Source: a virus | Direction: 5' to 3' (one strand) | IMG/VR virus record: IMGVR_UViG_3300014208_000007 | Span: 1-62,041 of that record | DNA length: 62,041 nucleotides | In this document: positions 6,433-56,554 of the stretch, piece after piece | Layout of the letters: each line of letters starts with the position of its first letter | How positions within the stretch are numbered: the first letter of the stretch is position 1 | The notes under the pieces: model-generated | What the model was told of the DNA's origin: nothing | What the model saw: only the letters and a program-made list of their open reading frames with translations | The model's database searches: none | Translations under genes and position numbers: made by a program

Positions 6433-9400
6433 CTATCTTCGCTCTCGAAGTATGCGGTTCCGCATGATTCTCGCCTCCCGGACGATATCCCTTTCCCCGG
6501 CGGAAAGGACGTTCTCGTGGAAGTGAATCGCCTTGGCGAGCTTGTCCTTTTCTTCGGCGTCCAACGTGTTCACGAAATCCCTGCCGTCCTTCTTGTTCAT
6601 GCCTCCCAACGGGTGCATTCTATCCAGGGAGGACCGTATCCCTTCCGGCGTCCCGTTGAGCGACAGGTATTCCTCCATGAACTTCTCTTTCGCGTCCGCG
6701 TCCTTGTACCGGATCGCAAGCCTCAAGTTGTAGAGTGCGTTGTTCTTCGGTGAGATGAAAGCTCCCTCCGAGGCTTTGCCGATCTTCTCGAGGTAGCGCG
6801 ACCTGGCCTGAAGGATATCGGAATAGGCGTTCTGCCCCGGGTCCGCCCGATAGACGAAGAACTGCGCGAGGGATTTCTGGTATCCCTCCGAGGGCAGTCC
6901 GGCGATCTCCTTGTATTCGTTCTCCAGCCCCACCGACTGAGCGAGGTAATACCCTCTGTCCCGGATCGTACGAGGCTTGAAGACATCAGGGAAGAGGACC
7001 TTGCCTGATGCGAGTTCCGCCGGGGTCTTGGCGATCGGCGTTATCCCCTGCGCGATGACGTTGACCGGGGATTTCGCCATCTCCAAGGCGATCTCGCGGA
7101 GCGTCCGCTTGCCGGAAGCCCACCGGGAGACGTGCAAGGGGAAGGCGTCCAACCCGAACCATTGCAGGAAGTCACCAAGCGCACCGATCCTTGTGAAGTT
7201 GATGATCTTCCCATCGGGGTCCCGCCCGAATATAATGTGCGGTCGGTTCCGGTTCTGTTCGTCCAGTTCGTCCTCTTCCTCGGGGAACATCAGGTTGTTC
7301 CACGCCTGAAGCATGGCCCAGAAGGCGGTTGCGGATATCAGGAACTTCCCGACGCGCCAAGCCGTGTACGGGGTCTTGGCGAACGCCCCGAGGGCTTTGC
7401 GACCAACCGCCTCGGCCACCTTCTTGTCGGAGGCCGCGTTCTTTGCGAACTGGATGTACCGTCGGAAGTTGACTTCCTTCCACGACCAGAATGGGATGAG
7501 ATGGTCCCGCATCGCATTTCCCATGACGCTGACCTGATCGTAGGCGCCGAGCAGTTGATTCGAGAGTGTGAATGCTTTGTCGTGCGGATCCTTGATCGCC
7601 GTGATCTCTTCGGGGATGGATGCGCCGAAGTTCTTCGGCGTACCCTTCGGGTCGGCCTTGATCTGCTCGATGTAGTCGAGGAACGCTGCGTACCGGAGCA
7701 CGGATTCCCGGAAGTCGGTAGCCAGTCGGACGGTTTTCCAATACTTCTTGAAGGCGGCCACCGGAAGGTCTCGCAGCGGTTCTCCGGCCTCACGGACGTG
7801 GGAGAAGATCCGCATCTTGTTCAATTCGGAGAGTTCCTGCGCCTGCAGGGTAGTCTCAAACCCGCCCCGCTTGAACCACTCCCGCATCTCCGGCGTCATC
7901 CCGCGGTCGGACGTGAAGACCTGATACAGTTCCCGTGCCGCCTGCGGGACCTTCTTGAACGTGGAGGGATTCCCGACGAACGCCGCGTCCGCATCGCCGG
8001 TAAGGTTTCGGAAGTTGTACTTGAAGAACCGCCGCGGGGAGACCAGTTGCCATACCTTCCAACCGGTCAGGATCTTCTTGTCGTACCCGAGCAGAACGCC
8101 CTGCGGCTTCGCCTTCAGGAGACTATTGAGCGTGTCTGCAACTTCCTGCTTGACGATGAACCGCTTCCGCTTACCACCAAGTGCCATGACCTGCCGAATT
8201 AGATCAGGATCGACCTCGGCCATGTCGAGGGCGCCTTCGCGCAACTGGTCCGCCAATTTCGCAGGGATCGACTCGGCCATGTAAAAGGTGTTACCTTCCC
8301 GGGGTTGCCACTCGATATACCCCTCCGGGATCCCCACGTCCTTGGTCATCGAGGCGACGTTGTAGACGTCGTCCACCGCCTTGATGGTCTTCGCCACCTC
8401 GATGTCGTAGAGCATCTGGGCGATGACTTCATACTCGGCTTCGAGATAGTTCGTGTTGATGTCGTACTCTGATCCCTTGCGTTTCTTGAGGAATCCTCGG
8501 CCAGTAGGAGTCCGCAACCGCTTGCCCGTGCCGGCCACGCCTTTGAGGTTCGCGTATTCGATGACCTGATGCCGGAAGTAATTCTCTTTCGTGAATCGGT
8601 CGGCCACCTTGAATCCTATAGCGCCCATCGCCGAGATGTAGGACTGCTTGACCGATTCCGAGAACTCCTGGCGCAGGAAGAGTCCCTGCTCCACCACGGG
8701 GTCCCTTCCCACAAGCCGGTCTATCTTTGCCAGTTCCGCCGCAACGGACTCCTTGGTGAATCCGAACGGCAGTAGGTGATCCGCCTTGGCTTCCTCCGCC
8801 AGATCGTCCAGCAGGACCTTTCGCTCGAAGAGGCCCATGCGTACCTTGTCGAATTTCACGGTGATCGCCTGCATCGCCCTGACGGTTCGGTCGGCCGCTA
8901 CCCCCTTCTGCTTCGAAAGTCGCAGCAGAGCGGTGCGAAGCGGGGCGAATTCGGCGTTCCTTGGAAGATGCTCGTACTCCCGGGTCGCCTTGTTGACCAA
9001 CGCACGGACGACCTCTCGCGCGCGGCCAAGCAGCGGTTCCGGCTTCAGCCCGTGCGCCGCCTTGTACCGGGCCTCGGACTCCTCCGTACCAAAGGCGTAG
9101 TCCTTCTCGGAGTATTCCGGTTTCCCGATCACCACGTCGACAGGGCGGATAGAAAGTCCCGCGGAAGGTTCCGACTCCGGTATAACCTTGTTGACCACAT
9201 CGGCGAGTGCCTGCTCTGGATCAGAAGATGAGGCAGTCGGCTTCTTCCCGTACCGGGGGGAGTAACCTTGATCCTGCTTCTCGACCGCAGCGGTAAGATT
9301 CTCGTCCAGCCACTTCTTCAGGGATTTCCCAGGCAACGTGTCGATGGCATTCTTCGCGCCCTCGATAGCGGCTTCCCTCGTGTCGTGGATGCCTCCAAAT

Positions 9401-12400
9401 CCAAGGCCCGATCTTCCTTCAGATACGGTCCATGACTTCCTCCCCATGACATGATGGACAAAGGTGTCCGTCCCTTCCTCGATGTCGACAGCGTATCCCT
9501 TTACTTCTTGGAACCCCGGAGTGTCGGACTGTACCCCCTTCGCCACAAAATACTTTTTCGTAGTTGGGGCGTCCGCAACGTCTTCCTTCCCGAGGACCTT
9601 CCCCTCCCACCAGTCCGCCTCGGGGGCCACTTCCTTCGCCATCACGGGGTCCGGAAGGCCGGTAAGTCCGGTCAGGTCGATCTCGTCTGCCGGTGTCTTC
9701 GACAGGTCCTCTACCGGCATCGCCTTGAGTTCCGCTTCCACTTCGATCAGGCGGCTTTCCTTGGCGGCGAGGTCGTCCTCGTGGTCGAACGGTTTATCAA
9801 GAAGTTCCCCGAGGTCCTTGTTCTGCTTGGCGAGCCGGTCGGTTTCCTTCCTTAATTCGGCCGGTTTTTCCTGCGCGTTCCGGACGAAGGTCTCGATCGA
9901 CGACATCACGCCGCGGGGGGTGGAGACGGTACGGTTTGCCCCAAGTTTGTCGCTCATCGTCTTTTCGAAGAGTTGATACCTGAATCCAGCGTCGCCTACG
10001 GTAACAATTATCCCATCGCCTTTCGCCATATTTACGTAATTATAATCAACGGTTGATTCCACTCTCATACCGAACGGAATACCATTCACGGTTCCGGAAT
10101 ATACCTGCGAAAGATTGACGCCGTTGCTTTTTAATTCATAGAACCGATCCCTGCTGTTTACATTTTTGAATGCTTCTGCGGTCTTCGCTCGAAGGGTTTT
10201 CTCTACCTCCGTGAAATGCTCAACGAAGGAATCCCTATCGAAGTCACCCTTTACCCCGGACAGCTTGAACTCGACTACCTTCCCGTCCGGGAACGCCTTG
10301 GCGAGAATCTTGATGGCGGATTCCCATTCCTTCGCGGACGCTTCGAGCCTTTCGATGCCGTTGTTGTTCTGCCATATGGTCGTCCTTGCCCTGCCGATTT
10401 CGTTCTCGTGGGAAGATTTCAGGGACTTGAGATTCCGGATCTGGCTTTCCAACCCGAACTTCTCCCGGACCTTCGGATTCCCGAAGGACGCCATCATATC
10501 TTCGAACGTACCCTGCGCCGGGTCGAACGGATCTTCAAAGGTCCGATCCTGCAGGTCGCCGCGGAGGATCTGGTTGATGAACTTCTGTTTCGTCTGAAGG
10601 CGCTGCGCGGCGACGGAATCCATGGTCGCCTTGTGCCCGTAGGTGGTTATGTCGATGGTGTCGATCGTGTTCCCTGGCCGCCAGATACGCCCGTTCCGCT
10701 GCTCGAAGTCCATCGGCCGGCCGGGGATGTCGAGGTGGTGGGCCCGGACGAGGCGCTCCTGGATGTTGACGCCTACCCCGAGCTTCTCCGTGCCCCCCAT
10801 GACGAACCGCACTTCGCCGTCATTCACTTTGGCAAAGAGGGATTCCCTTTTCTCGTCGGTCTTGTAATCGTGGATGATGGCGATTTCGCTCTCAGGCACC
10901 CCGTTCTTTATGAGTTTCTTCTTGATGTCCTCGAAGAGGTTGAATTTACCGTCGGGACTCTGATACAGGTCGGAGAAGATGACCTGCGCGGCTTTCAGCT
11001 CCTTCGTGTCCTTCCACACCTGCACGGCTTCCTCGACGAGCCTGTTCACCTTGGACCCCGGGATGTCCGGCCGAGAAGAATCGACCAATCGGAGGTCGAT
11101 CGCCGCCTTCTTCGCCAGACCGAAGAGGACCATGGGAACGTGGCGGCTGTCCCTCTTCTCCCTACCGGGCAGTTTGTCCCATGCTTCCTTCTGCAACTTG
11201 ATCCCTTGGATAAAACTCGCAAGTTCGGCCGGCCGCTCCAACATGATCTGCCGTGGGGCGCCGCCCTTGATCGTCGGACGGGCCACGTTCACGTCTTCCG
11301 CCATGATGACGTCGGCCGCCGTTCTCCACATCGTCAGGAGTTCCGGGCCGTTGACGTACTCCGCGAACCGCGAGACCTCCTTGAAGTCCGTCGTCATCGT
11401 TTCTTCCAGTTCCGTCTTCACGTTGCCGAAGTTCGCGGCGAACGCATCGAAACTGGTAACGCCGTATGCCTCCATGAGGTCGGGACGGATGTACCGCAGG
11501 TGCGTCCACAACTCCGCCATGGTGTTCGATATCGGAGTACCGGTGGCGATGATGACGTTCTTCCCGCCGGTCTTCCCTCGAACCTCGGCCGTCTTCAGGA
11601 GGTGAAGCATGGAACGCCCGGCCGATCCAGAGTCGATCCCCTTGACCCGGTCCATCTTCGTGTAAAACTCGCTGCGCTTGTATTTGTGGGCCTCGTCGAC
11701 AAGGAGGGCGTCCACCCCTAGGTCGTCGAAGTTCAGCATCCCTTCCTTATGGCCGCGCGCCAGAAGCGCCACGATCTTCTCTTCCTTGTTTTTCTTCAGT
11801 TTCTCCCACTGCTTTACGGTCCGCTTGTCTTCCCCTCGCGCCTCCATCTCCTTGATGATGGCTTCCAGTTCCGCGACCTGCTCCTGCACGTAGGCGGCTT
11901 CCTTCTCCGGCTTCACCGACAGCATGTCGTAGGTGCTGTGCTGAAGAACTACCGCGTCCCAATCACCTGTCGCTATCTGGGCAAGGAGTTTCTTTCGGTT
12001 CTTCGCCTGGAGCTGTCGGGTGTTCGGGATCAGGACCCTCGCCGTCGGGTACAGTTCACGGAACGCCCTGCCGTACTGGTTGAGGGTGGACCCCTGTACC
12101 ACGATCATCGGCTTCTTGGCCGTTCCGATGCGCCGCATCTCCATGGCCGTGGTGGCGAAGATGTAGGTCTTCCCGGTTCCGACCGCATGGGCCAACAGGG
12201 TGCTCTCCTGCAGCGACCGGGAGACCGCTCGCTTCTGGTGAGGATGCAGCGTGATCGAATGCGAGGCCCCGGGGTAATGCTTCATCGTCGGCGTGTGCGC
12301 GGTCTTCAGGACCATGTTGTTCTTGTCGCGGTTGTAAATGTCCTTCAGGACCGGCGCCCACTTCTCGCTCTTCCTCGTCCACGACAGGAACTCCGCCTGC

Positions 12401-15400
12401 AGTTTCTTCTGCATCTCGCGGGCGGCGATGGTCCTCTTTTCGTCAACCACCCACTTCGGGGCATTCCTCTCGCCCACGTCTATACGGACTTCCGTGAATT
12501 TCAGGTTGAAGGAGTCCTTTAGGATATCGAGCGCGTTGGCGCCATCCACCCCCCACGTGTTCTGCGCAAGGGCGGAGAGCCCGTGTCGCGGGTTATCCAT
12601 GAAAAACTTGCTGTTGTCGGCGGATTCAGAATACGAAACGGCGATGTCCATGCCGAGGGTGTCTTTGATGAAGTCGGTATATGCCTCCGTGGGTACCCAC
12701 GTCGACCCGATCCTCATGTATATCTGGTCGATCTCAAGGTCCTTCGGCTGCACCCTCTTCAGCGCCTCGATGTTCTTCTCGAACCGCGGATCGTCCTTGA
12801 CCGCCTCTTCCGCCCGGATCAGTTTGTCGCGCACGTTCCCGGAAAGGTATTCGTCCTGCCCCTCGAGCAGGCCGGTGGCGGGGTTGATGTACGCAAGTCC
12901 GTCATTGGCGAGTTTTTCCGTGACGCCTTCCACGGTGCTATTCAGAAGTTTTGCGATGTACGCCGCGTCGACCTTGTTCCGGTACGTCATCGATATCTTC
13001 ACCGCATCGTCGGCCGACTCCGCCGAGACCGGTTCCTTGAACGGGAAGATGGTCCGCTCCGTGAAGATCGCCGCCTTCACGAAAGTCTTTTCCTTCGCTG
13101 TGGTGGTCTGCCCCTTGTTCGGCCCGCTCTTCACCAGGTAGGTCTTCGGGACCTCGACCTGCTTCTCCAGGGAGAGGGCAAGCGGATACTCGCCGTCTTC
13201 GGAAAGCCACTGATGGGACTTGTCGGATACCGGCCCGTGGCGTTTCACGAATTCGTCGTATGCCTTGTTGAGTTTCGTCCGCTGCGCTTCGATCTGTGCG
13301 TCCGTCGATCCCTCGTCGAGTTGCAGGTGGATCAGTTCCTTCGCCAGATCCCGTACTCCGATATACCTTTTCGCAACTACCACTCTCGCTGCGTACTTCG
13401 TGAAGTCGGGACGTACCAGTTCCCCGCCTTCGTTCACGTACAGTTGCCCGTCCTTTTCGAGCAGGATCCCGTTCTTCGTGCCGGATTCGGCGAAGACCGT
13501 TCCCTGCTGACTGACAAGCGCCCCCTCGCCGGCGATCGCCGCGGGGAAACTGTTGACGGCCTTGGCGAGTGCCTCCTCGAGGGGTTCCTTGCCAGGCAGG
13601 AGGGTGTATTCCTTCCCGTCGCCGCCGTACATCGACCCCTTCATGGAGTGCTCGCCAAGGACCATCTCGGGGTGATTGATGAAATACTCGTTGACCGGGG
13701 CGTTCTCTCCGGCGGCTGTCTCCACAGTCAGGACGTTGCGGAACTGCTGCGCGCCGGTGAACTGCGAGGCGTCTTTTTTACGGAACACGAGGATGTCGGT
13801 GACCACTTCCGTCCCTGCGCTCTTCTCGAACGCGGCGGAGGGAAGGCGGACGGCTCCTACGAAATCCGCCTTCTTCGCAAAGTAGTCACGCATCTTGCCG
13901 CCGGAAGCGGAGTCAAGCGTGTAGTGAGACGTGATTGCGATGACGATTCCGCCTGGACGGACGAGATCGATCTTTCGTGCGATGAAATAGTTGTGGATGC
14001 TCCAGCCGGAATAATCCTTATGCTTGGGGTCAGTGACAGGATACTTCCCAAACGGCACGTTGGATATGGCGAGGTCCGCGGAGTTGTCCTTCATCGCCTG
14101 TGCGGTCTGGAACCCGGTGATCTGCACGTTCGCCTCGGGATAGAGGCGCTTCAGCATGGCCCCGGAGGTCTTGTCGAGCTCGACCGCCTGGACGATTGCG
14201 CGCTTGGCGATGCCTTCCGGCATCAGACCGAGGATGTGCCCAATACCTGCGGAGGGTTCCACGATCCGGCCGCCCTTGATCCCAAGGCGTTCCGCGATCG
14301 GCCACAGCCCTTTCGAAATGACTTCCCGCGAGGTGTAATGCGCGTTCATCGTGGACGCCTTGGCGGCGTTCCACTCCTCTTTGGAGAGGATCCCGCCGAG
14401 GTCCGGGTGGAGTTTCTTTCCGATGCGGTCAAACCACTTCTTGTATTTCTCAGGCTCTCCCTGCCACGACTGGATGGTCCCGTCCTTCTGTCTGTCGTAG
14501 ACGACTTCTTTGTCGAAACCGAACACGTCCTGCGCGAGGGACCCCCACCCGGAAAATTGAGCAAGGATCTTCTTCTCTTCGGGAGAGGGGTTACGGTTTT
14601 CCGCTTCGAGTTTTCGGGAGAGTTCTAACGCCTTGATGTTTGCATTGATCCGGCCGACCTTGCCAGCAGGTACGATTATATCTCCTGGAGCAATGACGTG
14701 GTTTCGGTCCTCGATTCGTACAGGTTCTCTGCCCACTGGATGATTGCGGACTTCAGGGACTCCTGCAACGGCTCCGGTTCCTTCTCCGGCGGGGGCGGCG
14801 ATATCACCTGCTCCGCCACGATCTCGTCGATCTGGTACCTTGGAAGTCCCTTTTCCTGAAGGTTGTACCCCAGGTCCAGCGCCCGCCCCACCTTCTCCGA
14901 CAGGTACATCCGGAGTGCCGACCGGTCCTTGAAGTACATCTTCTTCACGAACTGCGGCTTGTTCTCCAGGAGCCACAGAAGGTGGTCCATCCAATAACTG
15001 TCCTTCTCGTACTCCCTCGCCAGTTCCACCAACATCGGGGACTCCTCCTGATTCTATTGGGAGCGGTTTTTTCTCGGTTGTCAAGGGGGAAGTTACAGGT
15101 TCCTGGGCGATCTGTTTTCGCACCTCCGCCGCTGTAATTGCATTTTCTATCACCTCTTCCCGGGTGGCCCAACCGAGGCCATCGGCCAACAGGGGTTCTA
15201 CCGTGCGACGTACCCCCTCTTTCGTGATCTCGTAGGAGTATCGCCCCTTGTCGTTCTGGAGAATCTTGTAATCAATGTTCCCAAGGGTTCCGGCACCCTT
15301 TCTTGCGAGGTCTGCCCGCAGCGCATGTTCCGGAGAGAGAGAACCAGCAGCACCTTCTTTATTCTTTGTGAATTCAGTAGGAGACACCGTGGCCTTACTT

Positions 15401-18400
15401 CCCTCAAGGCGAATGTTCCCTTCCGAGTCGATATGTGAAATCTTATGCCCGGCCTTGTTCCATCCTGTCCTGTAATAAACCGTATCGCCGACACTGAATC
15501 CCTGCGCCAAAGTGAGTGCCTTGTTGGAGGAAACCTTTTCCTCGATCGGTATGGCCTTCACGCCATCGCGCGTTGGAATAATCGCGGCCTTCTTCCATGT
15601 GACGACGGGGGCCGACTCCGGTGTCTCTTCCTTCGCCTTCTCCTTCAGCCACGCCGCTTTCTTCTCGAACGGTTTCAGCGTGAAGAATTTCTGCGTGGCC
15701 CCCACGCCCGCGGGGAGTTTCTGCCCGGTGATCTCGTAGAAGATGTTCCGGCTGATCTTGTTCGACGGGTGGAGCATGGAGTTGTAGGCGCCGCGCTCGA
15801 TGGCGGTCCGCACCATCGCGGCGGACTTGATGGCAGCCGTCTCGCTGATCTTGTCGTCGATGGCCCGGTAGCGGTCGGCGATCTTCTGAAGTTCCTTCCC
15901 GCGCTCCGGCAGGGTCCCGTCCTTCAGGAAGTCCCGGACGAGGCGATAGTCGGTCATGACGGGCTGCAGGTGCGGCGACAGGTTCGGCTGGTAGCCAATC
16001 TGCCCGGGCTTCAGGTAGACGAGGAACCGGGGATCCGATTCGTGCTTCCCGAGGTCCCTGTTGCGCTCCGACATCGGCCGGCCTTCCGGGGCGGTGATGA
16101 CGTCCATGTCCGCGTCGGTCAGGTCCTTGCCGGGCTTGTCGATAGGGAGGCCCTTGAAGAGTTTCTGGTCTGTCTTGGCACGAGTAACCTCTGGCTTAGG
16201 CGTGCCTTCGCCCCCCTTGTCGACAGGTGCCTCCGGGGGGACGGAAGGGGGCGGCTCAACCGGTGCCTTCTTCGCTTCCGGGACCTCGACCACGCCCTGC
16301 TTGACCACTCTCGTCTCAGGAAGGACCTTGAAGTCAGCCTTGTCGGACTGCCCGATATGGGACGCCCACTGCTGGACTTCCTTTTTCCCGACCTTGTCGG
16401 TCTCAAGGGACCCAAGGTTGTGCTTCGCCGATGCCTCGTCGTCCCATACGATGTTCGTGGTCCCGTCGGAATTTGCCGAGGTGACCGTACCCTTCGACCC
16501 GTCGAAGATGGATTCGATCCGCTTCCCACGGATGGCCTCTACTCCGTGGGGGAGTTGGTCGAGGTGGACGGTGCCGGTCGCCTTCGATTGCTTGATGGCG
16601 AGGTTCCGCTTCTCGCGGTCAAGGCGAACATCCTTGCTTGTTGGATCAAGTTTCTCCCCCGATCTCGGCACCGCACCCCGTTCAGCTCGAGCATTCTCGA
16701 AGGATATCTCCGCTTCGGTCTTCTTCCGGGCGGGTTCGGGAACGACTACCTCGATCGGTTTCGGCTTCTCGCCGGCCAGTATCGCCTTGCGCCGGTCCTT
16801 CAAGGCGTCCAATGATCCCTTGTGCTTACTCAGGCGGTCGGACAATTCCATCCGCCCTAGGGTATCGGATGCCGGGGTATCCTTCAGTTCCTTCTCGAGG
16901 TTGGCGATGTGGGAATCGACCACCTGGATGTCGGAATCCACGGTCGGCAGGTCGGGCACCTGGCTTTCGGGGTACGGTGATCGGACAGGGCGCGGAGCGG
17001 TGCGGCGGTCGCCAACATGTGCCTCGGCCGCCTTCGCCGCCGCCTCGAGGTCAGTGAACTGACCGAGGGACTTCCCGCCCGGGGCCTTGGCCTCCCAGAC
17101 GGCCTCTCCCTTGTCGTTCTGCACCTCAACGATACCCGCCTTCGCGGTGCCGAAGTCGTCATCCTGCACGTCGAGGAAGTGCGACGGCTCGCCGGGGATG
17201 GCGCCGCGGTCTCCGGTCCAACGGTCGCCCGGGGGCGTCACTGGAGCGTCGGATACTTCGTGCGGGACGGGGCGGAGTTCGCTCTTGGGCTTCTCAGCCT
17301 GCCTTGTAAGGTATTTTTGATGTAACAGGGAATTTTTCAGGACGTAGGTAATCCCCTGCTCCCTCGGGGATTTACCTCCATACCCCATCTCTGGATCATC
17401 CAGAATTTCCTGTTGAATCTCGGGCGGGAGAGCGGGATTCAACTGATCGACCTTTCCGGGTTCGAATGCTACCCCTTTCCCTTCCTCGGCAACGGGAGCG
17501 GGTTTCTTTTCCCCGGCTTCAGGGACATTGACGGTCTCCTTCTTGGCTTTCTTCGCCGCCTTCGGCGCAGGTGGGGCCGGTTCAGGGGACGGAGTAGGAC
17601 CGGGGGGCGGAGCCTCTTCCGCGGCCTTTCCACCCTTCTTCTCTTCCCGGGTCTCCCGGAGCGCTGACCCGGCGCCTCCCATGAGGCCCATGATGAACGA
17701 CGGGGGGATAACGTTGATCCCGGAGATGAGTTGTTTTTTCGCCTCTTCTGCGGAGGGAGGTTCATAAGATACCCTTGCGTTTTCGTCGTAAAACGCCTCT
17801 TGCGCCTTGATTTTACGGACGTTTTCAGGTTCGGCAACAACATTCTTCGCCAGTATCTCGGCCGGTTCCTCAAGGTATTCCGTCCCCGCTTCGACGGCGC
17901 CGGTAGTCAACCAGTTGAGAAGGCGGGATTTCGCGCCTGGGGACTTGAGCATCTTCCCGACGGAGATAGCGTTGAGTCCGGCCGAGGCAAGCGTCATCGT
18001 CTCGCCGGCCAAAAGCGCCTGATCCTCGGTTCCTCCGCGCTTCAGGACCTCTTCGAAGGTCGACGCCCCCTCGAGCGCCCCGCCCGCGGAGCCACCGGCA
18101 ACGGATCCGCCGATCTGCGCGAGGCGGGCAATCACCTGTGGAGTCCACTGTATAGCCTTCCCGAGCACCTGAATCCCACGTCCTGCTCCCAAGGCCGGAA
18201 TGATCGAGGCGGCGAACGACGGGACGGTATCGGCTATGTTGTAGGCCCACCAAGCGGATTCTCCAAGAAGTTCGGGTTTCTTCAGGATGTCACCTTGGAG
18301 TTTCGTATCCGGCTTGAAGTTTTCGGCCGCCCCCTCCCAGAATTCCTTCGCCACCCGGCCGGCGCCCGAAAGCGACGGAATACCCAATTTCCTTCCGGCG

Positions 18401-18903
18401 ATATCGGTAAGGGTTCCGATGGTCTCGCCAAGACGGGTAGTCCCATGAAGAAGTCCGGTTCCAAGCGCCTCGGCCGTGCCGCCCTCCGACCCCGGGTAGT
18501 CGACGACAGGGAAGCCCCCGGCCTCTTCTTGGGGCCGAACCGACCGCACCATGGCGTCCCTCGCCCTCGAAAGCGGCCCCTGTGCCGCCACAGGCTGCGC
18601 AGGAGGCACGGAAGCGGCGGGGAGGGGGGTAGGGGCGGCGGAAACGGGTTCCGCCACAGGGGCGGCGCCCTCGGCCCCGGCAAGCATGGATTCCTCGGGG
18701 GGGACAGATGCCACCGGGGGCCCGGAGGGTTGCCGCAGGGTCAGCAGGCGGGGGATGTCCTCGGTGACGACCCGCTTCGCGCGCTCCCATGCGGTGTCGG
18801 GAGCAGGACTCCCGAATTCCGAGAATGCGCTCTGCCCGGAGGGGGTTGGCGGTAAATGCTCTTCAGCGGCGCTTCCCTTGCCGAATTCGTCGAATGCGCC
18901 CAC
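6433..18903 (-). CDS. Giant polyvalent protein, 4,156 aa: Gly-zipper/hydrophobic N-terminus, N6-adenine DNA methyltransferase module, SNF2/DEAH helicase module, long C-terminal region (P1 DarB-like architecture)
   Basis: Uninterrupted ORF with a GTG start 2 nt after the upstream stop. MTase motifs VEPSAGIGH and NVPFG. Helicase motifs AVGTGKTY, DEAH, ATGTPISN and QRNGRIWRPGN. Lies inside the virion gene block. Confidence 0.8.
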   Translation of the reverse strand: MGAFDEFGKGSAAEEHLPPTPSGQSAFSEFGSPAPDTAWERAKRVVTEDIPRLLTLRQPSGPPVASVPPEESMLAGAEGAAPVAEPVSAAPTPLPAASVPPAQPVAAQGPLSRARDAMVRSVRPQEEAGGFPVVDYPGSEGGTAEALGTGLLHGTTRLGETIGTLTDIAGRKLGIPSLSGAGRVAKEFWEGAAENFKPDTKLQGDILKKPELLGESAWWAYNIADTVPSFAASIIPALGAGRGIQVLGKAIQWTPQVIARLAQIGGSVAGGSAGGALEGASTFEEVLKRGGTEDQALLAGETMTLASAGLNAISVGKMLKSPGAKSRLLNWLTTGAVEAGTEYLEEPAEILAKNVVAEPENVRKIKAQEAFYDENARVSYEPPSAEEAKKQLISGINVIPPSFIMGLMGGAGSALRETREEKKGGKAAEEAPPPGPTPSPEPAPPAPKAAKKAKKETVNVPEAGEKKPAPVAEEGKGVAFEPGKVDQLNPALPPEIQQEILDDPEMGYGGKSPREQGITYVLKNSLLHQKYLTRQAEKPKSELRPVPHEVSDAPVTPPGDRWTGDRGAIPGEPSHFLDVQDDDFGTAKAGIVEVQNDKGEAVWEAKAPGGKSLGQFTDLEAAAKAAEAHVGDRRTAPRPVRSPYPESQVPDLPTVDSDIQVVDSHIANLEKELKDTPASDTLGRMELSDRLSKHKGSLDALKDRRKAILAGEKPKPIEVVVPEPARKKTEAEISFENARAERGAVPRSGEKLDPTSKDVRLDREKRNLAIKQSKATGTVHLDQLPHGVEAIRGKRIESIFDGSKGTVTSANSDGTTNIVWDDEASAKHNLGSLETDKVGKKEVQQWASHIGQSDKADFKVLPETRVVKQGVVEVPEAKKAPVEPPPSVPPEAPVDKGGEGTPKPEVTRAKTDQKLFKGLPIDKPGKDLTDADMDVITAPEGRPMSERNRDLGKHESDPRFLVYLKPGQIGYQPNLSPHLQPVMTDYRLVRDFLKDGTLPERGKELQKIADRYRAIDDKISETAAIKSAAMVRTAIERGAYNSMLHPSNKISRNIFYEITGQKLPAGVGATQKFFTLKPFEKKAAWLKEKAKEETPESAPVVTWKKAAIIPTRDGVKAIPIEEKVSSNKALTLAQGFSVGDTVYYRTGWNKAGHKISHIDSEGNIRLEGSKATVSPTEFTKNKEGAAGSLSPEHALRADLARKGAGTLGNIDYKILQNDKGRYSYEITKEGVRRTVEPLLADGLGWATREEVIENAITAAEVRKQIAQEPVTSPLTTEKKPLPIESGGVPDVGGTGEGVREGQLLDGPPSVAPGEQAAVREEDVLQGPVGTPDVPVGEGGAGAGPGVQPSGKGTSKVPDRRDRGGAGDIAAPAGEGTGAVAGVPEVRNHPVGREPVRIEDRNHVIAPGDIIVPAGKVGRINANIKALELSRKLEAENRNPSPEEKKILAQFSGWGSLAQDVFGFDKEVVYDRQKDGTIQSWQGEPEKYKKWFDRIGKKLHPDLGGILSKEEWNAAKASTMNAHYTSREVISKGLWPIAERLGIKGGRIVEPSAGIGHILGLMPEGIAKRAIVQAVELDKTSGAMLKRLYPEANVQITGFQTAQAMKDNSADLAISNVPFGKYPVTDPKHKDYSGWSIHNYFIARKIDLVRPGGIVIAITSHYTLDSASGGKMRDYFAKKADFVGAVRLPSAAFEKSAGTEVVTDILVFRKKDASQFTGAQQFRNVLTVETAAGENAPVNEYFINHPEMVLGEHSMKGSMYGGDGKEYTLLPGKEPLEEALAKAVNSFPAAIAGEGALVSQQGTVFAESGTKNGILLEKDGQLYVNEGGELVRPDFTKYAARVVVAKRYIGVRDLAKELIHLQLDEGSTDAQIEAQRTKLNKAYDEFVKRHGPVSDKSHQWLSEDGEYPLALSLEKQVEVPKTYLVKSGPNKGQTTTAKEKTFVKAAIFTERTIFPFKEPVSAESADDAVKISMTYRNKVDAAYIAKLLNSTVEGVTEKLANDGLAYINPATGLLEGQDEYLSGNVRDKLIRAEEAVKDDPRFEKNIEALKRVQPKDLEIDQIYMRIGSTWVPTEAYTDFIKDTLGMDIAVSYSESADNSKFFMDNPRHGLSALAQNTWGVDGANALDILKDSFNLKFTEVRIDVGERNAPKWVVDEKRTIAAREMQKKLQAEFLSWTRKSEKWAPVLKDIYNRDKNNMVLKTAHTPTMKHYPGASHSITLHPHQKRAVSRSLQESTLLAHAVGTGKTYIFATTAMEMRRIGTAKKPMIVVQGSTLNQYGRAFRELYPTARVLIPNTRQLQAKNRKKLLAQIATGDWDAVVLQHSTYDMLSVKPEKEAAYVQEQVAELEAIIKEMEARGEDKRTVKQWEKLKKNKEEKIVALLARGHKEGMLNFDDLGVDALLVDEAHKYKRSEFYTKMDRVKGIDSGSAGRSMLHLLKTAEVRGKTGGKNVIIATGTPISNTMAELWTHLRYIRPDLMEAYGVTSFDAFAANFGNVKTELEETMTTDFKEVSRFAEYVNGPELLTMWRTAADVIMAEDVNVARPTIKGGAPRQIMLERPAELASFIQGIKLQKEAWDKLPGREKRDSRHVPMVLFGLAKKAAIDLRLVDSSRPDIPGSKVNRLVEEAVQVWKDTKELKAAQVIFSDLYQSPDGKFNLFEDIKKKLIKNGVPESEIAIIHDYKTDEKRESLFAKVNDGEVRFVMGGTEKLGVGVNIQERLVRAHHLDIPGRPMDFEQRNGRIWRPGNTIDTIDITTYGHKATMDSVAAQRLQTKQKFINQILRGDLQDRTFEDPFDPAQGTFEDMMASFGNPKVREKFGLESQIRNLKSLKSSHENEIGRARTTIWQNNNGIERLEASAKEWESAIKILAKAFPDGKVVEFKLSGVKGDFDRDSFVEHFTEVEKTLRAKTAEAFKNVNSRDRFYELKSNGVNLSQVYSGTVNGIPFGMRVESTVDYNYVNMAKGDGIIVTVGDAGFRYQLFEKTMSDKLGANRTVSTPRGVMSSIETFVRNAQEKPAELRKETDRLAKQNKDLGELLDKPFDHEDDLAAKESRLIEVEAELKAMPVEDLSKTPADEIDLTGLTGLPDPVMAKEVAPEADWWEGKVLGKEDVADAPTTKKYFVAKGVQSDTPGFQEVKGYAVDIEEGTDTFVHHVMGRKSWTVSEGRSGLGFGGIHDTREAAIEGAKNAIDTLPGKSLKKWLDENLTAAVEKQDQGYSPRYGKKPTASSSDPEQALADVVNKVIPESEPSAGLSIRPVDVVIGKPEYSEKDYAFGTEESEARYKAAHGLKPEPLLGRAREVVRALVNKATREYEHLPRNAEFAPLRTALLRLSKQKGVAADRTVRAMQAITVKFDKVRMGLFERKVLLDDLAEEAKADHLLPFGFTKESVAAELAKIDRLVGRDPVVEQGLFLRQEFSESVKQSYISAMGAIGFKVADRFTKENYFRHQVIEYANLKGVAGTGKRLRTPTGRGFLKKRKGSEYDINTNYLEAEYEVIAQMLYDIEVAKTIKAVDDVYNVASMTKDVGIPEGYIEWQPREGNTFYMAESIPAKLADQLREGALDMAEVDPDLIRQVMALGGKRKRFIVKQEVADTLNSLLKAKPQGVLLGYDKKILTGWKVWQLVSPRRFFKYNFRNLTGDADAAFVGNPSTFKKVPQAARELYQVFTSDRGMTPEMREWFKRGGFETTLQAQELSELNKMRIFSHVREAGEPLRDLPVAAFKKYWKTVRLATDFRESVLRYAAFLDYIEQIKADPKGTPKNFGASIPEEITAIKDPHDKAFTLSNQLLGAYDQVSVMGNAMRDHLIPFWSWKEVNFRRYIQFAKNAASDKKVAEAVGRKALGAFAKTPYTAWRVGKFLISATAFWAMLQAWNNLMFPEEEDELDEQNRNRPHIIFGRDPDGKIINFTRIGALGDFLQWFGLDAFPLHVSRWASGKRTLREIALEMAKSPVNVIAQGITPIAKTPAELASGKVLFPDVFKPRTIRDRGYYLAQSVGLENEYKEIAGLPSEGYQKSLAQFFVYRADPGQNAYSDILQARSRYLEKIGKASEGAFISPKNNALYNLRLAIRYKDADAKEKFMEEYLSLNGTPEGIRSSLDRMHPLGGMNKKDGRDFVNTLDAEEKDKLAKAIHFHENVLSAGERDIVREARIMRNRILRERR
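10600..12260 (-). other. SNF2/DEAH helicase module of the giant protein (approximate bounds)
   Basis: Motif I GTGKTY at 12163-12180, motif II DEAH at 11686-11697, motif VI QRNGRIWRPGN at 10669-10701. Confidence 0.7.
13700..14560 (-). other. N6-adenine DNA methyltransferase module of the giant protein (approximate bounds)
   Basis: SAM-binding motif VEPSAGIGH at 14236-14262 and catalytic NVPFG ((D/N)PP(Y/F)-type) at 14047-14061. Confidence 0.7.
14676..15035 (-). CDS. Nested 119-aa gene overprinted in the +1 frame on the giant ORF; helical protein of unknown function
   Basis: ATG at 15035 with GGAGGAG 6 nt upstream and an in-frame TAG 7 codons upstream. Protein-like sequence (MLVELAREYEKDSYWMDHLLWLLENKPQF...). 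By hand count about 101 of 119 codons end in G/C, the genome's coding signature. The giant frame here is A/T-rich at position 3. Confidence 0.6.
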   Translation of the reverse strand: MLVELAREYEKDSYWMDHLLWLLENKPQFVKKMYFKDRSALRMYLSEKVGRALDLGYNLQEKGLPRYQIDEIVAEQVISPPPPEKEPEPLQESLKSAIIQWAENLYESRTETTSLLQEI

Positions 18904-39987: not shown

Positions 39988-42516
39988 TCACTGACTCCTC
40001 CATGACGATCCTCGTTTGACCTTCGCCCGCCAGTCCTTGCCCTTCGGCGACACCTTGACCGTGCAGATCGAGGCGTTGACCACCGCGTCCCCGTCGTCTG
40101 GCGACCGCCCAAGGCGCTTCTTGATGCCGGGCCCGTCCGGCCCGTCTTCCTTCGGCTCGACGAGGATCCCGCCCGGCGTCAGCTTCCACATCGGCGCGCA
40201 CAGGTCGGCGCGCAACTGCGAGTCGTTCGGCAGCGCGATGTTGTCGCCGATCTTCGGGTCCAGCGACTCCCTGAACCGCCACCAGAGCATCGCCCGCTTG
40301 TTACGGAACTTGAGGCGATTCGTCATCTTGTCCGTCTGGCCCTCGACGCCCTCCCGGTCCCCGCCGTTGACCGCAACGACCTGGACATCGTTCGATTCGA
40401 GGTGATCGACCACCGACCCGCCCACGCCCACGACGTCGACGTGGACAGGCGCCCCGTCCCGTCGGTTGGCGACCACCAGCCCCGCGGTCGTGCCCCCGTC
40501 CGGCGTTTCAGCACCCGGATACCGCTTCAGGGGCGCGTACCAGGTCCCGTGCCGCATCGCCAGCACGGTCTTGTCCTTGCCTCCGCGCGCCACGTCCACA
40601 CCCATCGAGTCCATCGGCCTGCCGAGACCGCCCTCCGGCGTCCACCGGGCCATCGCCGCATCGATCCACGCCGTCGGGATCACCTGCCACGCCGAATCCT
40701 CCGTGCCGGCCTTGAAGTCCCCGCGGAGCATCTGCGACCGGAGCGGCTCGGGCAACGCCTGGAGCTGCGCGACGTACCCGGACGACATCAGGAACGCATT
40801 GTCCTGGACCTTGGAGGGGATGAACGTGCGGCTTTGCGGCTGGATCGTCTCGCCGTTGTGGACGAACAGCGCACCGTCGGGGCGCTCGATCTCCTCCCCG
40901 TCGATCATGGCGTACCACCGCAACTCGCCCGGCTTGGCGGGGTTCGGGTGCTTGTCGTCCAACCATGGGGCCCAGAACTTGACGACCCACTGCCCGTCCT
41001 GATTCGTCGGGGGATTCCCCGCGCACACCACCCGGCACCGCTGGCCGGGGGTCGTGGTGCGCAACCACCCCGCGAGGAATCGGAACTGCTGCTCAAAGAA
41101 GTGAGTTATCTCATCAAAGCAATTCTTGTTGACAAATCCGGCCCCTGTTATATAATGATTGACGGATTCAACAGTTAAATCGAATAATTCTGTCTCGGGG
41201 AGGTCTGAAAATGACACCAAAGCAGGAGAAACATCAGCCTGTGTTTGACGTCTTTCCATCGTATAAGGGTGGTCGTACCACCGAATACGGTGGATACGTC
41301 TGGGAAGAACTCCCGGGGCACCACCTGCAAAACCTTTGGGGATACGTCGCCCAACATCGCCTTGTGGCCGAAGACATATTAGGGCGCGAACTCCTGCCGG
41401 GGGAGACGGTCCACCATATCGACGAGTGCCGATCGAATAATTCACGGGAGAACCTTGTGGTAATGGGAACGACGGCCCACCGCCGATACCACGCGAGGAA
41501 GGCGGGTCTTGCAAGCCGCTCGCCGATAACGCGAAAGATGGTACGGGAAGCATTGCGGTCAGAAGGTGGGATAAAGCCCGCCGCGCGGCTCCTGAAAGTC
41601 TCTCATTCCACACTTCGCGGAAGATATCCTGGGCTTTGTAAGCCGTATCAGCGGACCAGCCCAACGGTGATCGACAACCCGAGAGATATTGACATAGTGC
41701 TCGCAGCCGCCCCGGATCCAAAGATCGGACTCCGGGAGATAATGGCGGCCGCCCATATGTCGGCGATGACGATCCTTCGGATATGCAGGCGGCGCGGAGT
41801 GACGTGGGTGAAAAAGACAAAGGCCGGGGAGATTCATAGAACGTATCGCGGGAAGCCCACCCGTCGGTCGTTAGAATCGAGTGATTCCGACTCTGCACCT
41901 GCTGGCCGATAACGCGACCATTGATCGAAGCGGACACCAACGCCGCCGGTTTACTGACAACGTGAAGCTGTGATACGCGACGAGAACCCTCGAGCGTATC
42001 AACAAGATCCCCAACCTTCACGTCCTCGACGGGTTTCCACGATCCGTCGGCCATCCACACAGGCGTCCCGCGCCCAACGCAAATCAAGTCGTGCGGCCGC
42101 CCCTGGTACCGGATCTCGTCGCCGAGGTCCTTACACGACCCGAGCTCCACCTGCCGCCCGAGTTTCGGCAGGCGCCACACGTGCTCCTGCCCGTTGTACC
42201 CGTCCCGCGTGCCGAGGACTTCCGTGGTCCGGTCGATGATGGCGAGGAGTTGCGTGCCTTCCCGCCTGAAGATGATCGACCGCCGGTGCTGAGTCAGTGC
42301 CAACCCGATCAGCAGGTCCGTCTTGCCGCCGCCGGCCGCGCCGCCGTAGTAGACGATGTCCGCTTCGGACTCAAACGCAAGCGTTTGCGGCCCGGGCTGT
42401 GGAACCCATATCGGTTGCTCCGCCGCAAGGATCCCGTCCACCTCGGCCATCTCCGCGGGGGTGAGGAAACGCAGCACGGACGCCAGTTCGGCGATCTGTG
42501 CCGCTGCGCCGTTCAC
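39988..42516 (-). CDS. terL: Terminase large subunit, 842-aa precursor containing a 320-aa intein (522 aa after splicing)
   Basis: Walker A YYGGAAGGGKTD. Walker B is split as HDLI|intein|CFDEITHF. ATGA overlap with the TerS stop. Confidence 0.8.
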   Translation of the reverse strand: MNGAAAQIAELASVLRFLTPAEMAEVDGILAAEQPIWVPQPGPQTLAFESEADIVYYGGAAGGGKTDLLIGLALTQHRRSIIFRREGTQLLAIIDRTTEVLGTRDGYNGQEHVWRLPKLGRQVELGSCKDLGDEIRYQGRPHDLICVGRGTPVWMADGSWKPVEDVKVGDLVDTLEGSRRVSQLHVVSKPAALVSASINGRVIGQQVQSRNHSILTTDGWASRDTFYESPRPLSFSPTSLRAACISEGSSSPTYGRPPLSPGVRSLDPGRLRALCQYLSGCRSPLGWSADTAYKAQDIFREVWNERLSGAARRALSHLLTAMLPVPSFALSASGLQDPPSSRGIGGGPSFPLPQGSPVNYSIGTRRYGGPSPPAGVRALICLRPQGDVGRRIPKGFAGGAPGVLPRRIHRIRWYDHPYTMERRQTQADVSPALVSFSDLPETELFDLTVESVNHYITGAGFVNKNCFDEITHFFEQQFRFLAGWLRTTTPGQRCRVVCAGNPPTNQDGQWVVKFWAPWLDDKHPNPAKPGELRWYAMIDGEEIERPDGALFVHNGETIQPQSRTFIPSKVQDNAFLMSSGYVAQLQALPEPLRSQMLRGDFKAGTEDSAWQVIPTAWIDAAMARWTPEGGLGRPMDSMGVDVARGGKDKTVLAMRHGTWYAPLKRYPGAETPDGGTTAGLVVANRRDGAPVHVDVVGVGGSVVDHLESNDVQVVAVNGGDREGVEGQTDKMTNRLKFRNKRAMLWWRFRESLDPKIGDNIALPNDSQLRADLCAPMWKLTPGGILVEPKEDGPDGPGIKKRLGRSPDDGDAVVNASICTVKVSPKGKDWRAKVKRGSSWRSQ
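41129..41156 (+). promoter_or_regulatory. Consensus sigma70-type promoter for the HNH gene (TTGACA-N16-TATAAT)
   Basis: TTGACA at 41129-41134 and TATAAT at 41151-41156, followed by GGGGAGG at 41197-41203 and the ATG at 41211. The hexamers are formed by the antisense of intein codons FVN and NHYI. Confidence 0.6.
41211..41912 (+). CDS. HNH homing endonuclease with C-terminal HTH-like regions, 233 aa, encoded antisense inside the TerL intein
   Basis: GYVAQHRLVAEDILGRELLPGETVHHIDECRSNNSRENLVVMGTTAHRRYH is a canonical HNH motif. Has its own SD and promoter. Confidence 0.75.
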   Translation: MTPKQEKHQPVFDVFPSYKGGRTTEYGGYVWEELPGHHLQNLWGYVAQHRLVAEDILGRELLPGETVHHIDECRSNNSRENLVVMGTTAHRRYHARKAGLASRSPITRKMVREALRSEGGIKPAARLLKVSHSTLRGRYPGLCKPYQRTSPTVIDNPRDIDIVLAAAPDPKIGLREIMAAAHMSAMTILRICRRRGVTWVKKTKAGEIHRTYRGKPTRRSLESSDSDSAPAGR

Positions 42517-52884: not shown

Positions 52885-54189
52885 ATGGCCCGACCGGCGA
52901 GAGTTTTCAATTTTGCAACGCAACGCCCGCACACGACGTCCATCATGGGCCTTTCCCAGACGGTGCAGTTGACCCGCCTCGGCAAGATCCACCTGGGGAT
53001 CAAGAAGGCGTCCTCGAAGAACGCCGAGTGCAAGAAGAAGAATCACCCGTCGGAGCCGATCTGCATGTACTGTTCCTACCCGGTACAGACGGACTACTTC
53101 GTGTTCGGGGGGCCCGGGGACTACCCGCCGGGGATCCACGAGGCGCTCGTCAAGGAGTACGGGGAGAAGCCGAAGTCCCTCCAGTTCTACTTCCCGACGG
53201 AAAACCGGGCGCTCGTGTTCCCCCACGCCCTCAAGTTTTACAAGGGACCGCGCCTGTGGTGCCGCGGCGACAACCAGACGGCCACCCGGATCGACGAGAA
53301 GACGGGCGGGCAGTTCTCCGTGAATTGCCCCTGTGAGCACTTGGGCGCCGGCTGCGCGCCGAGAGCTTCGCTCATGATCGCACTCTACAAGGTGAAGGTG
53401 TCCGGCGTGTTCCAGTTGGATACGGGATCTATCCACAACATCATCCGGACGAACTCCTTCATGAACGAGATTGCGGGCGACCCCGCCCACCCGGAGACGA
53501 CCCATCAGTCGCTTCTGCGCCGGATATCCTACGTCCCCCTGACGCTCTCCCTGATCCCGCAGCAGATCATGACACCCGGGCCCGAAGGAAAGGCGGTCAC
53601 CAAACCCCTGTGGGTCTTCACGTTCGACGGAGACGGACGCCAGGCCGCCATGCTCCGCCAACGGGACGCGATTTCCGCCCTACTGCCGGGACAACCCGAG
53701 ATGGCGGCGCTCCCGCCTGCTCCGGACGACCGGCGGGACGACGTGCGTGACGCCACCGGCCCTACCCTCGACGGAAAGCCCCTGACGCCCCCGGACGAGG
53801 CGATCGAGGGGGATGTGATCGACGGGGAGACCGGGGAGGTGCTGCAGGAGGCCGTCAAGGATGCCCCCGGTCCGGAACCGGACCCGAAGGCCCCGCCCTA
53901 CGACCGCAGCGTGCCCGTGGAGGCGCCGGCGCAAGGCGAGGTACCCTTCCCGGAGGCCGAGAAGCCCGCCGCCGAGGGTACCCCCCCGCCGCCCCCGACG
54001 TACCCGTGGACGAACAAGCTGCCCCAGGACGCCGGCAGCATCGTCCAGACCGTGAACGCCATCAAGTCCCGGGACGAATTCGACGCCTTCAAGGCCGCCA
54101 TCGAACCGATCTTGGCGGAGAAGGTGAAACCCGGGATGCGGAAGGCGGTCGAGAATGTGATCACAGAGAAGCAGGCGGAACTGTACTAA
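52885..54189 (+). CDS. Hypothetical recombination/replication-module protein, 434 aa, with Cys-rich core and Pro/Asp/Glu-rich C-terminal half
   Basis: GAGGAGGTG SD. Conserved-looking core (KIHLGIKK...DYFVF...LWCRGDNQTATR...CPCEH). Family not recognised. Confidence 0.65.
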   Translation: MARPARVFNFATQRPHTTSIMGLSQTVQLTRLGKIHLGIKKASSKNAECKKKNHPSEPICMYCSYPVQTDYFVFGGPGDYPPGIHEALVKEYGEKPKSLQFYFPTENRALVFPHALKFYKGPRLWCRGDNQTATRIDEKTGGQFSVNCPCEHLGAGCAPRASLMIALYKVKVSGVFQLDTGSIHNIIRTNSFMNEIAGDPAHPETTHQSLLRRISYVPLTLSLIPQQIMTPGPEGKAVTKPLWVFTFDGDGRQAAMLRQRDAISALLPGQPEMAALPPAPDDRRDDVRDATGPTLDGKPLTPPDEAIEGDVIDGETGEVLQEAVKDAPGPEPDPKAPPYDRSVPVEAPAQGEVPFPEAEKPAAEGTPPPPPTYPWTNKLPQDAGSIVQTVNAIKSRDEFDAFKAAIEPILAEKVKPGMRKAVENVITEKQAELY

Positions 54190-56541: not shown

Positions 56542-56554
56542 GGGTGCTGGTCGC

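Follow-up and report, generated by a model that had tools for sequence, protein, structure and literature searches.

Genes contained wholly within other genes of the same strand, in another frame, are known from phages: the spanin gene Rz1 lies inside Rz in the +1 frame, and in phiX174 gene B lies in A and gene E in D. Protein genes can also hold extra DNA in their own frame, as with the Rickettsia palindromic elements, which are in-frame insertions in protein genes. Bcep22-like phages have an embedded Rz1 (PMC9144972), and injected anti-restriction polyvalent proteins are a described class (PMC5512222). The small protein TnpV, which occurs in mobilisable transposons of the Tn4451/Tn4453 type and in integrative mobilisable elements of Firmicutes, has a postulated Xis-like role (PMC3158075). 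Here we analyse a stretch of 62,041 nucleotides (the window; IMG/VR record IMGVR_UViG_3300014208_000007), which appears to be the assembled sequence of an uncultured phage. A giant open reading frame (ORF) of the window, of the DarB-like anti-restriction type, contains in the +1 frame a complete second gene for a 119-aa protein. We put at about 85% the probability that this 360-nt segment is dual-coding and that the architecture is conserved, a judgement based on comparison of sequences.

Results

The features on which the argument turns are the following.

6433..18903, minus strand: giant ORF of 4,156 aa with no internal stop (ORF list and translation)
14676..15035, minus strand: nested gene, 119 aa plus stop, 14.1 kDa, pI 4.9, in the +1 frame of the giant ORF (translation)
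15042..15048, minus strand: Shine-Dalgarno sequence GGAGGAG, 6 nt before the nested ATG at 15033-15035 (sequence reading)
15054..15056, minus strand: in-frame TAG closing the nested frame, 7 codons 5' of the ATG (three-frame stop map)
14677..15036, minus strand: Gly/Pro/Val/Ala/Glu-rich linker, giant-frame codons 1290-1409 (composition, ratio of nonsynonymous to synonymous substitution rates (dN/dS) in relatives, freedom from stops)
9703..14700, minus strand: methyltransferase-helicase block (NHVIAPGDIIVPAGKVGRINANIKALEL...GWGSL...), starting at the nested stop (BLASTP and Pfam domains)

A sequence-only reading of the window had described two ORFs offset by +1, a giant frame without a stop, GGAGGAG 6 nt before the nested ATG and an in-frame TAG 7 codons upstream, and all of this was reproduced at the coordinates above. 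The nested frame is open solely from the TAG at 15054-15056 to the TAA at 14676-14678; it forms a complete ORF wholly within a longer ORF of the same strand (14676-15035 in 6433-18903), in another frame and with translation-initiation signals of its own. By giant-frame codon position, the GC content of 14674-15033 is 0.84/0.57/0.32 as compared with 0.62/0.42/0.75 for the whole giant ORF, and the switch is abrupt at both ends of the nested gene. Because the codon-position GC is flipped there, the normal coding signature belongs to the nested frame, whose GC at third positions (GC3) is 0.84, or about 100 of the 119 codons (the earlier hand count gave about 101), whereas 68% of the giant-frame third positions are A/T, in keeping with the "mostly A/T" of the same reading. 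Its description of giant codons 1290-1409 as Gly/Pro/Glu/Val-rich filler also held: 80% of the residues in this stretch are G, P, E, A, V, R or D, against 51% across the whole giant protein, and hydrophobic residues are almost lacking. As had been claimed, the methyltransferase sequence resumes directly at the nested stop (NHVIAPGDIIVPAGKVGRINANIKA...). No sigma-70-like promoter site was found at the nested start.

The two frames overlap on one strand and the nested stop falls exactly at the module boundary, an arrangement that a programmed +1 frameshift from the giant frame could also exploit; its product would be the truncated N-terminal modules joined to a TnpV-like domain, made beside the full-length protein. 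Phages use frameshifting to produce alternative C-termini, and several relatives have a +1 frame that stays open over 20-60 codons before the ATG. In the window, however, the TAG leaves 21 nt for a shift site, and no slippery motif is evident in those 21 nt, although relatives were not formally searched for such motifs. Both the ATG and the strong Shine-Dalgarno sequence, whose spacing is optimal, are conserved in nearly all copies and would be needless for frameshifting, the homologues function as free-standing genes of 107-140 aa, and the RNA at the nested start and junction folds no better than shuffled sequence (z = 0.62). We consider frameshifting improbable as compared with independent initiation of the nested gene.

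The nested protein belongs to a genuine protein family. Among 5.8 billion proteins we found 12 homologues at 58-84% identity, all of them 107-140 aa long, and a profile search of 1.84 billion representatives (E < 1e-3) gave 113 representative homologues, nearly all of 90-130 aa. Scanning IMG/VR with the family alignment led to two loci, L013 and L014, and a metagenome scan to a third, L017; their giant ORFs encode 4,386, 4,281 and 4,590 aa, respectively, and each has a nested homologue in the +1 frame. These homologues are about 30% identical to that of the window, carry the motifs WLLENKPQ and PPEPLP, end at the start of the methyltransferase and show the same GC flip and an AAGGAG-6 nt-ATG start. 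The same arrangement is found in a fourth lineage, L020. Termination followed by reinitiation into the methyltransferase module could be discarded, as the giant frame has no conserved ATG, GTG or TTG restart codon close to the nested stop (the window and L020 have none there, and L013 a GTG only).

For a broader survey, 80 DarB-like loci were retrieved from IMG/VR via the N-terminal region of the methyltransferase, and the 3 kb preceding each methyltransferase match were searched in all three forward frames with the family hidden Markov model (HMM). The family was found in 42 of the 80 loci. All 42 matches are at offset +1. Their distance upstream of the methyltransferase match never exceeds 620 nt and is about 420 nt or less for 41 of them, and the methyltransferase frame runs open through the nested gene every time; in none of the 80 loci was an in-frame copy of the small gene found in these 3-kb stretches. 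Many of the loci without a family match have a +1 ORF of 85-155 aa together with the same flip in GC, and an iterated profile recognised 63 of 77 +1 ORFs while giving no match to reversed decoys. In nearly all nested copies AGGAGG or AGGAG stands 6-9 nt before the ATG.

Cultured phages carry the gene as well. In Ralstonia phage Eline, a 107-aa +1 ORF with AGGAGG-6 nt-ATG lies within the coding sequence (CDS) annotated as "DarB-like antirestriction". By tblastn this ORF matched 40 Ralstonia and Burkholderia records (including Bcep22, BcepIL02, DC1, BcepMigl and CSP3), all under a single giant CDS with nothing else annotated there; in Bcep22 gp75 the offset of the nested ORF is 4387 nt, that is, +1. 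We also found it in Erwinia phage PEp14, Klebsiella phage SopranoGao, Vibrio phage VvAW1, Pseudomonas phage Itty13 and Sinorhizobium phage PBC5. The nested gene is annotated in none of the GenBank records examined, and standard annotation misses it because it lies inside a longer ORF. Based on these results, the nesting is an old and widely conserved architecture of fixed position and frame, and not a capture peculiar to this genome, a point on which the sequence-only reading needs correction.

We then compared the two readings in relatives. Estimated by NG86, which is biased for overlapping frames because the synonymous sites of each frame are constrained by the other, dN/dS between L013 and L017 (dS 0.86) is 0.18 for the nested frame, with 78% amino-acid identity, and 2.3 for the giant frame over the same nucleotides, with 54% identity. 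Among L013, L014 and L017 the nested frame gives 0.18-0.29 and the giant frame 1.5-2.3, with 0.26 for the methyltransferase region as control. For 11 pairs drawn from 5 lineages, the median values are 0.22 (nested) and 1.57 (giant, with a range in relatives of 1.1-2.4), the nested value being lower in all 11. Despite the bias of the estimator, the contrast between the frames is large and consistent.

The giant frame is stop-free in all 44 loci for which openness was assessed. With the nested protein held fixed, 1.9 open frames are expected if synonymous codons are redrawn with the usage of the adjacent methyltransferase region (null 1) and 9.3 if the gene's own synonymous codons are permuted (null 2); for the window alone, the simulated probability of an open giant frame is 0.028 and 0.23, respectively. 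The joint probability of an open frame in all 22 clusters (formed at 50% identity, with the most favourable member taken from each) comes to about 1e-37 with null 1 and 1e-17 with null 2, values that are approximate even after clustering, as the surveyed loci are mutually related. In L028, whose GC content is 43%, the fraction of T at third positions (T3) is 0.05 in the nested gene as compared with 0.29 in the adjacent region. As openness in 44 of 44 loci is far above either expectation, selection keeps the giant frame open. The nested protein is under purifying selection, whereas the amino-acid sequence of the giant frame is unconstrained, its single requirement being the absence of stops, which is satisfied by avoiding T at nested third positions. 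Since one reading is constrained as a protein and the other only against stops, we regard the segment as truly dual-coding.

Several claims of the sequence-only reading can be judged at this point. That the nested frame is the selected one is supported by the GC flip, by the low dN/dS in relatives and by the 12 close and more than 100 distant homologues; that it is a separate gene, by the Shine-Dalgarno sequence and ATG kept in nearly all copies and by the stand-alone homologues described below; that the giant frame truly continues, by its openness in every locus against the 1.9-9.3 expected. The comparison of both frames in relatives, which that reading had asked for, came out with the nested frame conserved (0.22) and the giant frame not (1.57).

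For an assembled sequence of apparently uncultured origin, an artefact must also be considered, in which compensating indels, a missed stop or an assembly chimera would have joined ordinary adjacent genes. L019, a short related contig, is a version of L013 that is either rearranged or chimeric, and the old record of phage PBC5 splits the giant gene into two CDSs with an unannotated gap. Against this, more than 60 independent assemblies show the same arrangement, as do finished cultured-phage genomes in which the giant CDS is annotated without a break; the homologue of the giant protein in phage JC1 was found in the virion by proteomics with 51 unique peptides (PMC9144972); and a codon-level signature of open-frame selection is impossible to obtain from sequencing errors. 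Because selection keeps the giant frame open, we can effectively dismiss both a sequencing artefact, whose likelihood we judge to be very small, and a giant ORF that is not read through.

Some loci of the survey show particular features. L019 (ENA ERZ27250303 k141_83431, 4,908 bp) is 99.5-100% identical to positions 1284-2108 and 9799-10743 of L013, joined over about 22 nt, and is either an assembly chimera or a deletion variant that has lost most of the giant gene's N-terminal half. In PBC5 (NC_003324.1 23165-27130), where the giant gene is annotated as two "DarB-like" CDSs, the unannotated gap, about 1.6 kb long, takes in the N-terminus of the methyltransferase; in the upstream direction the methyltransferase frame stays open for no more than 1,101 nt, and the family match of the nested gene is at -833..-558, further upstream than elsewhere, which could reflect old sequencing errors or a real variant architecture. 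In L030 (IMGVR_UViG_3300029258_005029) the +1 ORF is about 167 aa long and spans -425 to +96 relative to the methyltransferase match; its last 100 nt or so overlap the conserved N-terminal region of the methyltransferase. Some lineages may thus have an overlap in which both frames are truly constrained. The 6,698-aa giant ORF of L012 has a +1 ORF at the equivalent place, which was rejected as a nested family member. In Itty13 (NC_070969.1 4493-8458), PQC19_gp01 and gp02 ("hypothetical protein") are annotated antisense to the DarB-like methyltransferase match and the nested ORF; what the record annotates is probably a set of long ORFs antisense to a GC-rich giant gene, in place of the real one.

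The host protein consists of a variable N-terminal part, the linker, an N6-methyltransferase, an SNF2/SF2 helicase and a C-terminal part. Pfam recognised Eco57I at aa 1605-1679, ResIII and SNF2-rel_dom at aa 2217-2492 and Helicase_C at aa 2661-2744, so that an N6-adenine methyltransferase is followed by an SF2/SNF2 helicase in one polypeptide. Relatives of the giant ORF in GenBank are annotated "DarB-like antirestriction", and annotated DarB-like proteins match the N-terminal segment of the methyltransferase at 30-40% identity (tblastn). Other giant phage proteins are 37-44% identical to that of the window (L017 and L020 43-44%, L012 37%); with L013, aa 1289-3067 of the window protein align to aa 1112-2895 at 44% identity (BLASTP). 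For giant aa 900-1289, there was no homologue among the 5.8 billion proteins, and IMG/VR gave 24-aa matches only. The gene stands between an internal virion protein gene and a tail-fibre gene, with portal and TerL genes upstream. This agrees with the described class of injected anti-restriction proteins (PMC5512222), and the giant protein is probably a DarB-like polyvalent virion protein, packaging having been demonstrated for the JC1 homologue only. The JC1 study did not annotate the nested ORF, which was presumably missing from its search database (PMC9144972).

The HMM searches and structure prediction suggested earlier for the 119-aa product were informative in part: AlphaFold2 gave a confident, all-helical model of six helices (pLDDT 86), but direct Pfam or fold matches were not obtained. 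PHROGs returned phrog_2733 alone (E = 0.013), and the profile of the family alignment A4 had only chance-level matches among PDB sequences. Weak matches to TnpV (PF14198) occur in 6 of 49 family members. The nested protein of L081 scores 56.9 bits, above the gathering score of 27, and that of PEp14 20.7 bits, below it; the window protein does not reach this threshold, and an iterated profile links it and L081 in one family. Like TnpV, the window protein is a small (about 110 aa) all-helical protein of mobile elements, with 119 aa, six helices and homologues in phages and chromosomal elements. The impression of the sequence-only reading that it recalls small helical proteins of conjugative or transposable elements fits these results, and we regard the protein as a probable distant relative of TnpV, not a demonstrated member, the link being indirect through profile chaining. 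Scanning 20 ORFs of the window, which was not searched exhaustively, revealed no serine recombinase. In integrative conjugative elements of Streptococcus suis, TnpV-carrying mobile elements are reported to integrate specifically into snf2 (PMC9815147); this second, independent co-occurrence of TnpV and an SNF2-type gene may or may not relate to the nesting.

The nearest homologues of the window copy are free-standing genes on six contigs. On one side they border chromosomal-type genes (molybdopterin oxidoreductase, cytochromes, PPK2) and on the other mobile-element genes (HTH_17, a primase or DnaB-type helicase, a 1,713-aa ORF); the window copy belongs to a sub-lineage whose members also occur alone in chromosomal mobile elements. 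Two scans of genome contigs for the small gene yielded 0 confirmed loci. A tRNA next to the stand-alone copies, guessed at from the sequence, was excluded by ARAGORN, which found none. The stand-alone gene is always followed by an ORF of 235-370 aa (L004 964-2076; L008 2604-3602; L001 3150-4043), with Sigma70_r2 and GerE domains in L004 and a weak MarR-like match in L008, which hints at a regulatory operon context of the free-standing form.

These copies bear on the possibility that a mobile-element gene was recently captured in this one genome, by insertion into a permissive linker in a phase that luckily kept the giant ORF open. They are up to 84% identical to the window copy in protein and about 90% in DNA, with homology that sets in abruptly about 12 nt before the ATG, at the Shine-Dalgarno sequence, and ends near 14700; the nested copies of other phages reach no more than 38.5% identity to the window copy; and the giant-equivalent frame has no stop across the first 300 nt of any stand-alone copy, so an insertion could have preserved the ORF. 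However, the same family occupies the same place in the +1 frame in at least 22 diverged lineages and in cultured phages, and the position was therefore already occupied in the ancestor. Furthermore, the stand-alone copies themselves carry the signature of nesting, with T3 at 0.03-0.08 against 0.14-0.21 in the neighbouring gene and an alternate frame open over nt 1-303 (P <= 0.003), and the copy in L006 retains 17 nt whose giant-frame translation, EDRNHV, is the beginning of the methyltransferase module. As T3 depletion and an open alternate frame serve no purpose outside the nested context, transfer from phage to element is indicated, and the stand-alone copies most likely escaped from phage-nested copies closely related to that of the window. 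We hold a recent capture to be very improbable as compared with this old nesting; one nested allele may have replaced another through recombination. The view that the open giant frame is a mere by-product of high GC3 was also rejected, given the synonymous-codon simulations, the T3 depletion in phages of 43-51% GC and the sharp difference between the stand-alone copies and their own neighbouring genes.

Elsewhere in the window, long ORFs lie antisense to the giant gene at 12583-14628 (+, 681 aa), 10216-11721 (+, 501 aa) and 15445-16815 (+, 456 aa); they are probably a by-product of high GC3 and illustrate how easily such genes are mis-annotated. A phiC31 Gp3-like "recombination directionality factor-like" protein (PF18897, 81 bits) is encoded at 52885-54189 (+) and a C5 cytosine DNA methyltransferase (PF00145) at 56495-58024 (+). 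In TerL (39988-42516, minus strand, 842 aa), about 280 positions of the PHROG profile (140-421) are spread over residues 26-618, which is consistent with a large insertion such as the intein named in the sequence-only reading.

Discussion

The sequence-only reading held that a small gene had been overprinted on a linker of the giant protein, and our results reverse this direction. Because the small gene is folded and widespread, while the overlapping stretch of the giant frame is compositionally extreme and evolves freely, the small gene appears to be the older reading, over which the linker was laid. Homology between the giant proteins begins at or within the nested stretch (at window aa 1289 with L013 and at 1362 with L017) and extends to about aa 3067, whereas the window protein shares no homology with those of L013 and L017 over the N-terminal 1,100-1,290 aa. 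The big ORF of some phages reads across the nested gene even though it begins just 300-800 nt upstream. As homology begins at the nested gene, the conserved unit is the small gene together with the methyltransferase-helicase module, entered from a variable upstream ORF. Of the two origins proposed in the earlier reading, a fusion across a small gene fits better than the capture of a gene in a linker. On such a model, an upstream coding region and the methyltransferase-helicase gene would have been joined into one ORF by translation through an intervening small gene that had to be kept.

As to expression, one late mRNA would serve both readings. Ribosomes that begin at the start of the giant ORF would read through the segment and produce a disordered Gly/Pro/Ala/Glu-rich linker of about 120 residues, joining the variable N-terminal modules to the methyltransferase-SNF2 helicase pair. 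Other ribosomes would initiate at the internal Shine-Dalgarno sequence and ATG, make the 119-aa acidic all-helical protein and terminate where the methyltransferase module begins. We infer that both products are made.

The function of the small protein can be approached from its position. Because the small gene invariably lies directly 5' of the methyltransferase-helicase module, which is the sole basis of the proposal, we tentatively suggest that its product could be a partner of this pair, as a chaperone, packaging factor or activity regulator; we would not call this probable. More speculative still is a general scheme in which giant proteins absorb a neighbouring gene as an other-frame linker, the TnpV-like protein being thereby locked in as obligatory partner of the DarB-like protein and the stand-alone copies being escapees. 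If this were true, the obligatory partner could be an assembly or packaging chaperone, or a switch that holds the methyltransferase-helicase off in the producing cell and turns it on after injection, and the copies in chromosomal elements would have escaped from phages and may have been put to use against phages of this kind.

Several points weigh against the reading of the segment as a conserved dual-coding unit with these roles. Initiation within an ORF that is itself being translated is an assumption of the model. The window protein has no Pfam match at E <= 10 and, when scanned together with the other members of alignment A4, no NCBIfam match, and a fold search with its model gave nothing significant (best E = 1.3 in PDB and 0.23 in BFVD, Q8W6J4_2). 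The gene is not universal: 14 of the 77 +1 ORFs are not recognised by the iterated profile, and P1 darB has no nested or upstream TnpV-like gene. The neighbours of the stand-alone copies are regulators and replication genes, not a methyltransferase-helicase, which does not suit an obligate partner of the methyltransferase. To these may be added the bias of NG86 and the relatedness of the surveyed loci, given above with the values they affect.

The finding has practical consequences. A conserved gene has gone unannotated in phages of Burkholderia cenocepacia, Ralstonia solanacearum, Klebsiella pneumoniae, Pseudomonas aeruginosa, Erwinia and Vibrio vulnificus, several of which belong to groups of interest for therapy or biocontrol, and if giant genes of this kind were codon-optimised or synonymously recoded, the second gene would be destroyed. 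The locus is also an unusually clean case of long same-strand dual coding, in which the two selective regimes can be separated and the direction of overprinting inferred. It suggests that polyvalent proteins may grow by fusing across genes that cannot be lost. The fixed position before the methyltransferase-helicase provides a testable lead on the function of a TnpV-like protein, and the system is both widespread and accessible to experiment.

Comparison with known systems

Among mobile-element proteins, TnpV resembles the nested product as a helical protein of about 110 aa, and the nested relative in L081 passes the Pfam threshold for it; the window copy differs in having no Pfam match and in its context, which is a phage structural gene and not a serine-recombinase transposon. 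The host ORF shares with P1 DarB and other polyvalent proteins the same pair of methyltransferase and SNF2-type helicase and the location among virion genes (Iyer et al., 2017, PMC5512222). However, P1 darB starts at its own promoter and lacks the small gene, and the P1 DarB accessory protein Ulx is unrelated to the nested protein (negative HMM scores), so that P1 was discarded as a model for the nested gene. Overlapping genes, frameshifts and linkers are unmentioned in the survey of polyvalent proteins (Iyer et al., 2017, PMC5512222), and searches of the literature on DarB, Bcep22 and TnpV for overlapping, nested or embedded genes brought up no account of the present arrangement.

Inteins and the Rickettsia palindromic elements are similar in that extra DNA is held in a protein gene whose frame stays unbroken. 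The conserved reading here is in the +1 frame and has its own stop, and the locus is thus not an in-frame, ORF-preserving insertion. Unlike an intein, the nested gene has its own start and is not spliced out, and unlike both kinds of element it is fixed and inherited at one position and is not a mobile insertion at varied sites.

Close parallels are Rz1/Rz and the overlapping genes of phiX174. As in these, a longer ORF and a complete gene inside it that has its own ribosome-binding site and start share a strand but not a frame; related phages keep both readings, and in the present case evolution has maintained the one as a protein and the other as a stop-free frame. The differences concern the roles of the two partners. 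In our locus the embedded gene appears to be the older, folded and widespread one, and the overlapping part of the host is a featureless linker; the host ORF is a polyvalent virion protein of about 4,000 aa, and the constraint on its frame is the absence of stops only. In conclusion, embedded same-strand phage genes are known, and what appears to be new is a long, ancient and fully embedded gene lying under a linker that is read through.

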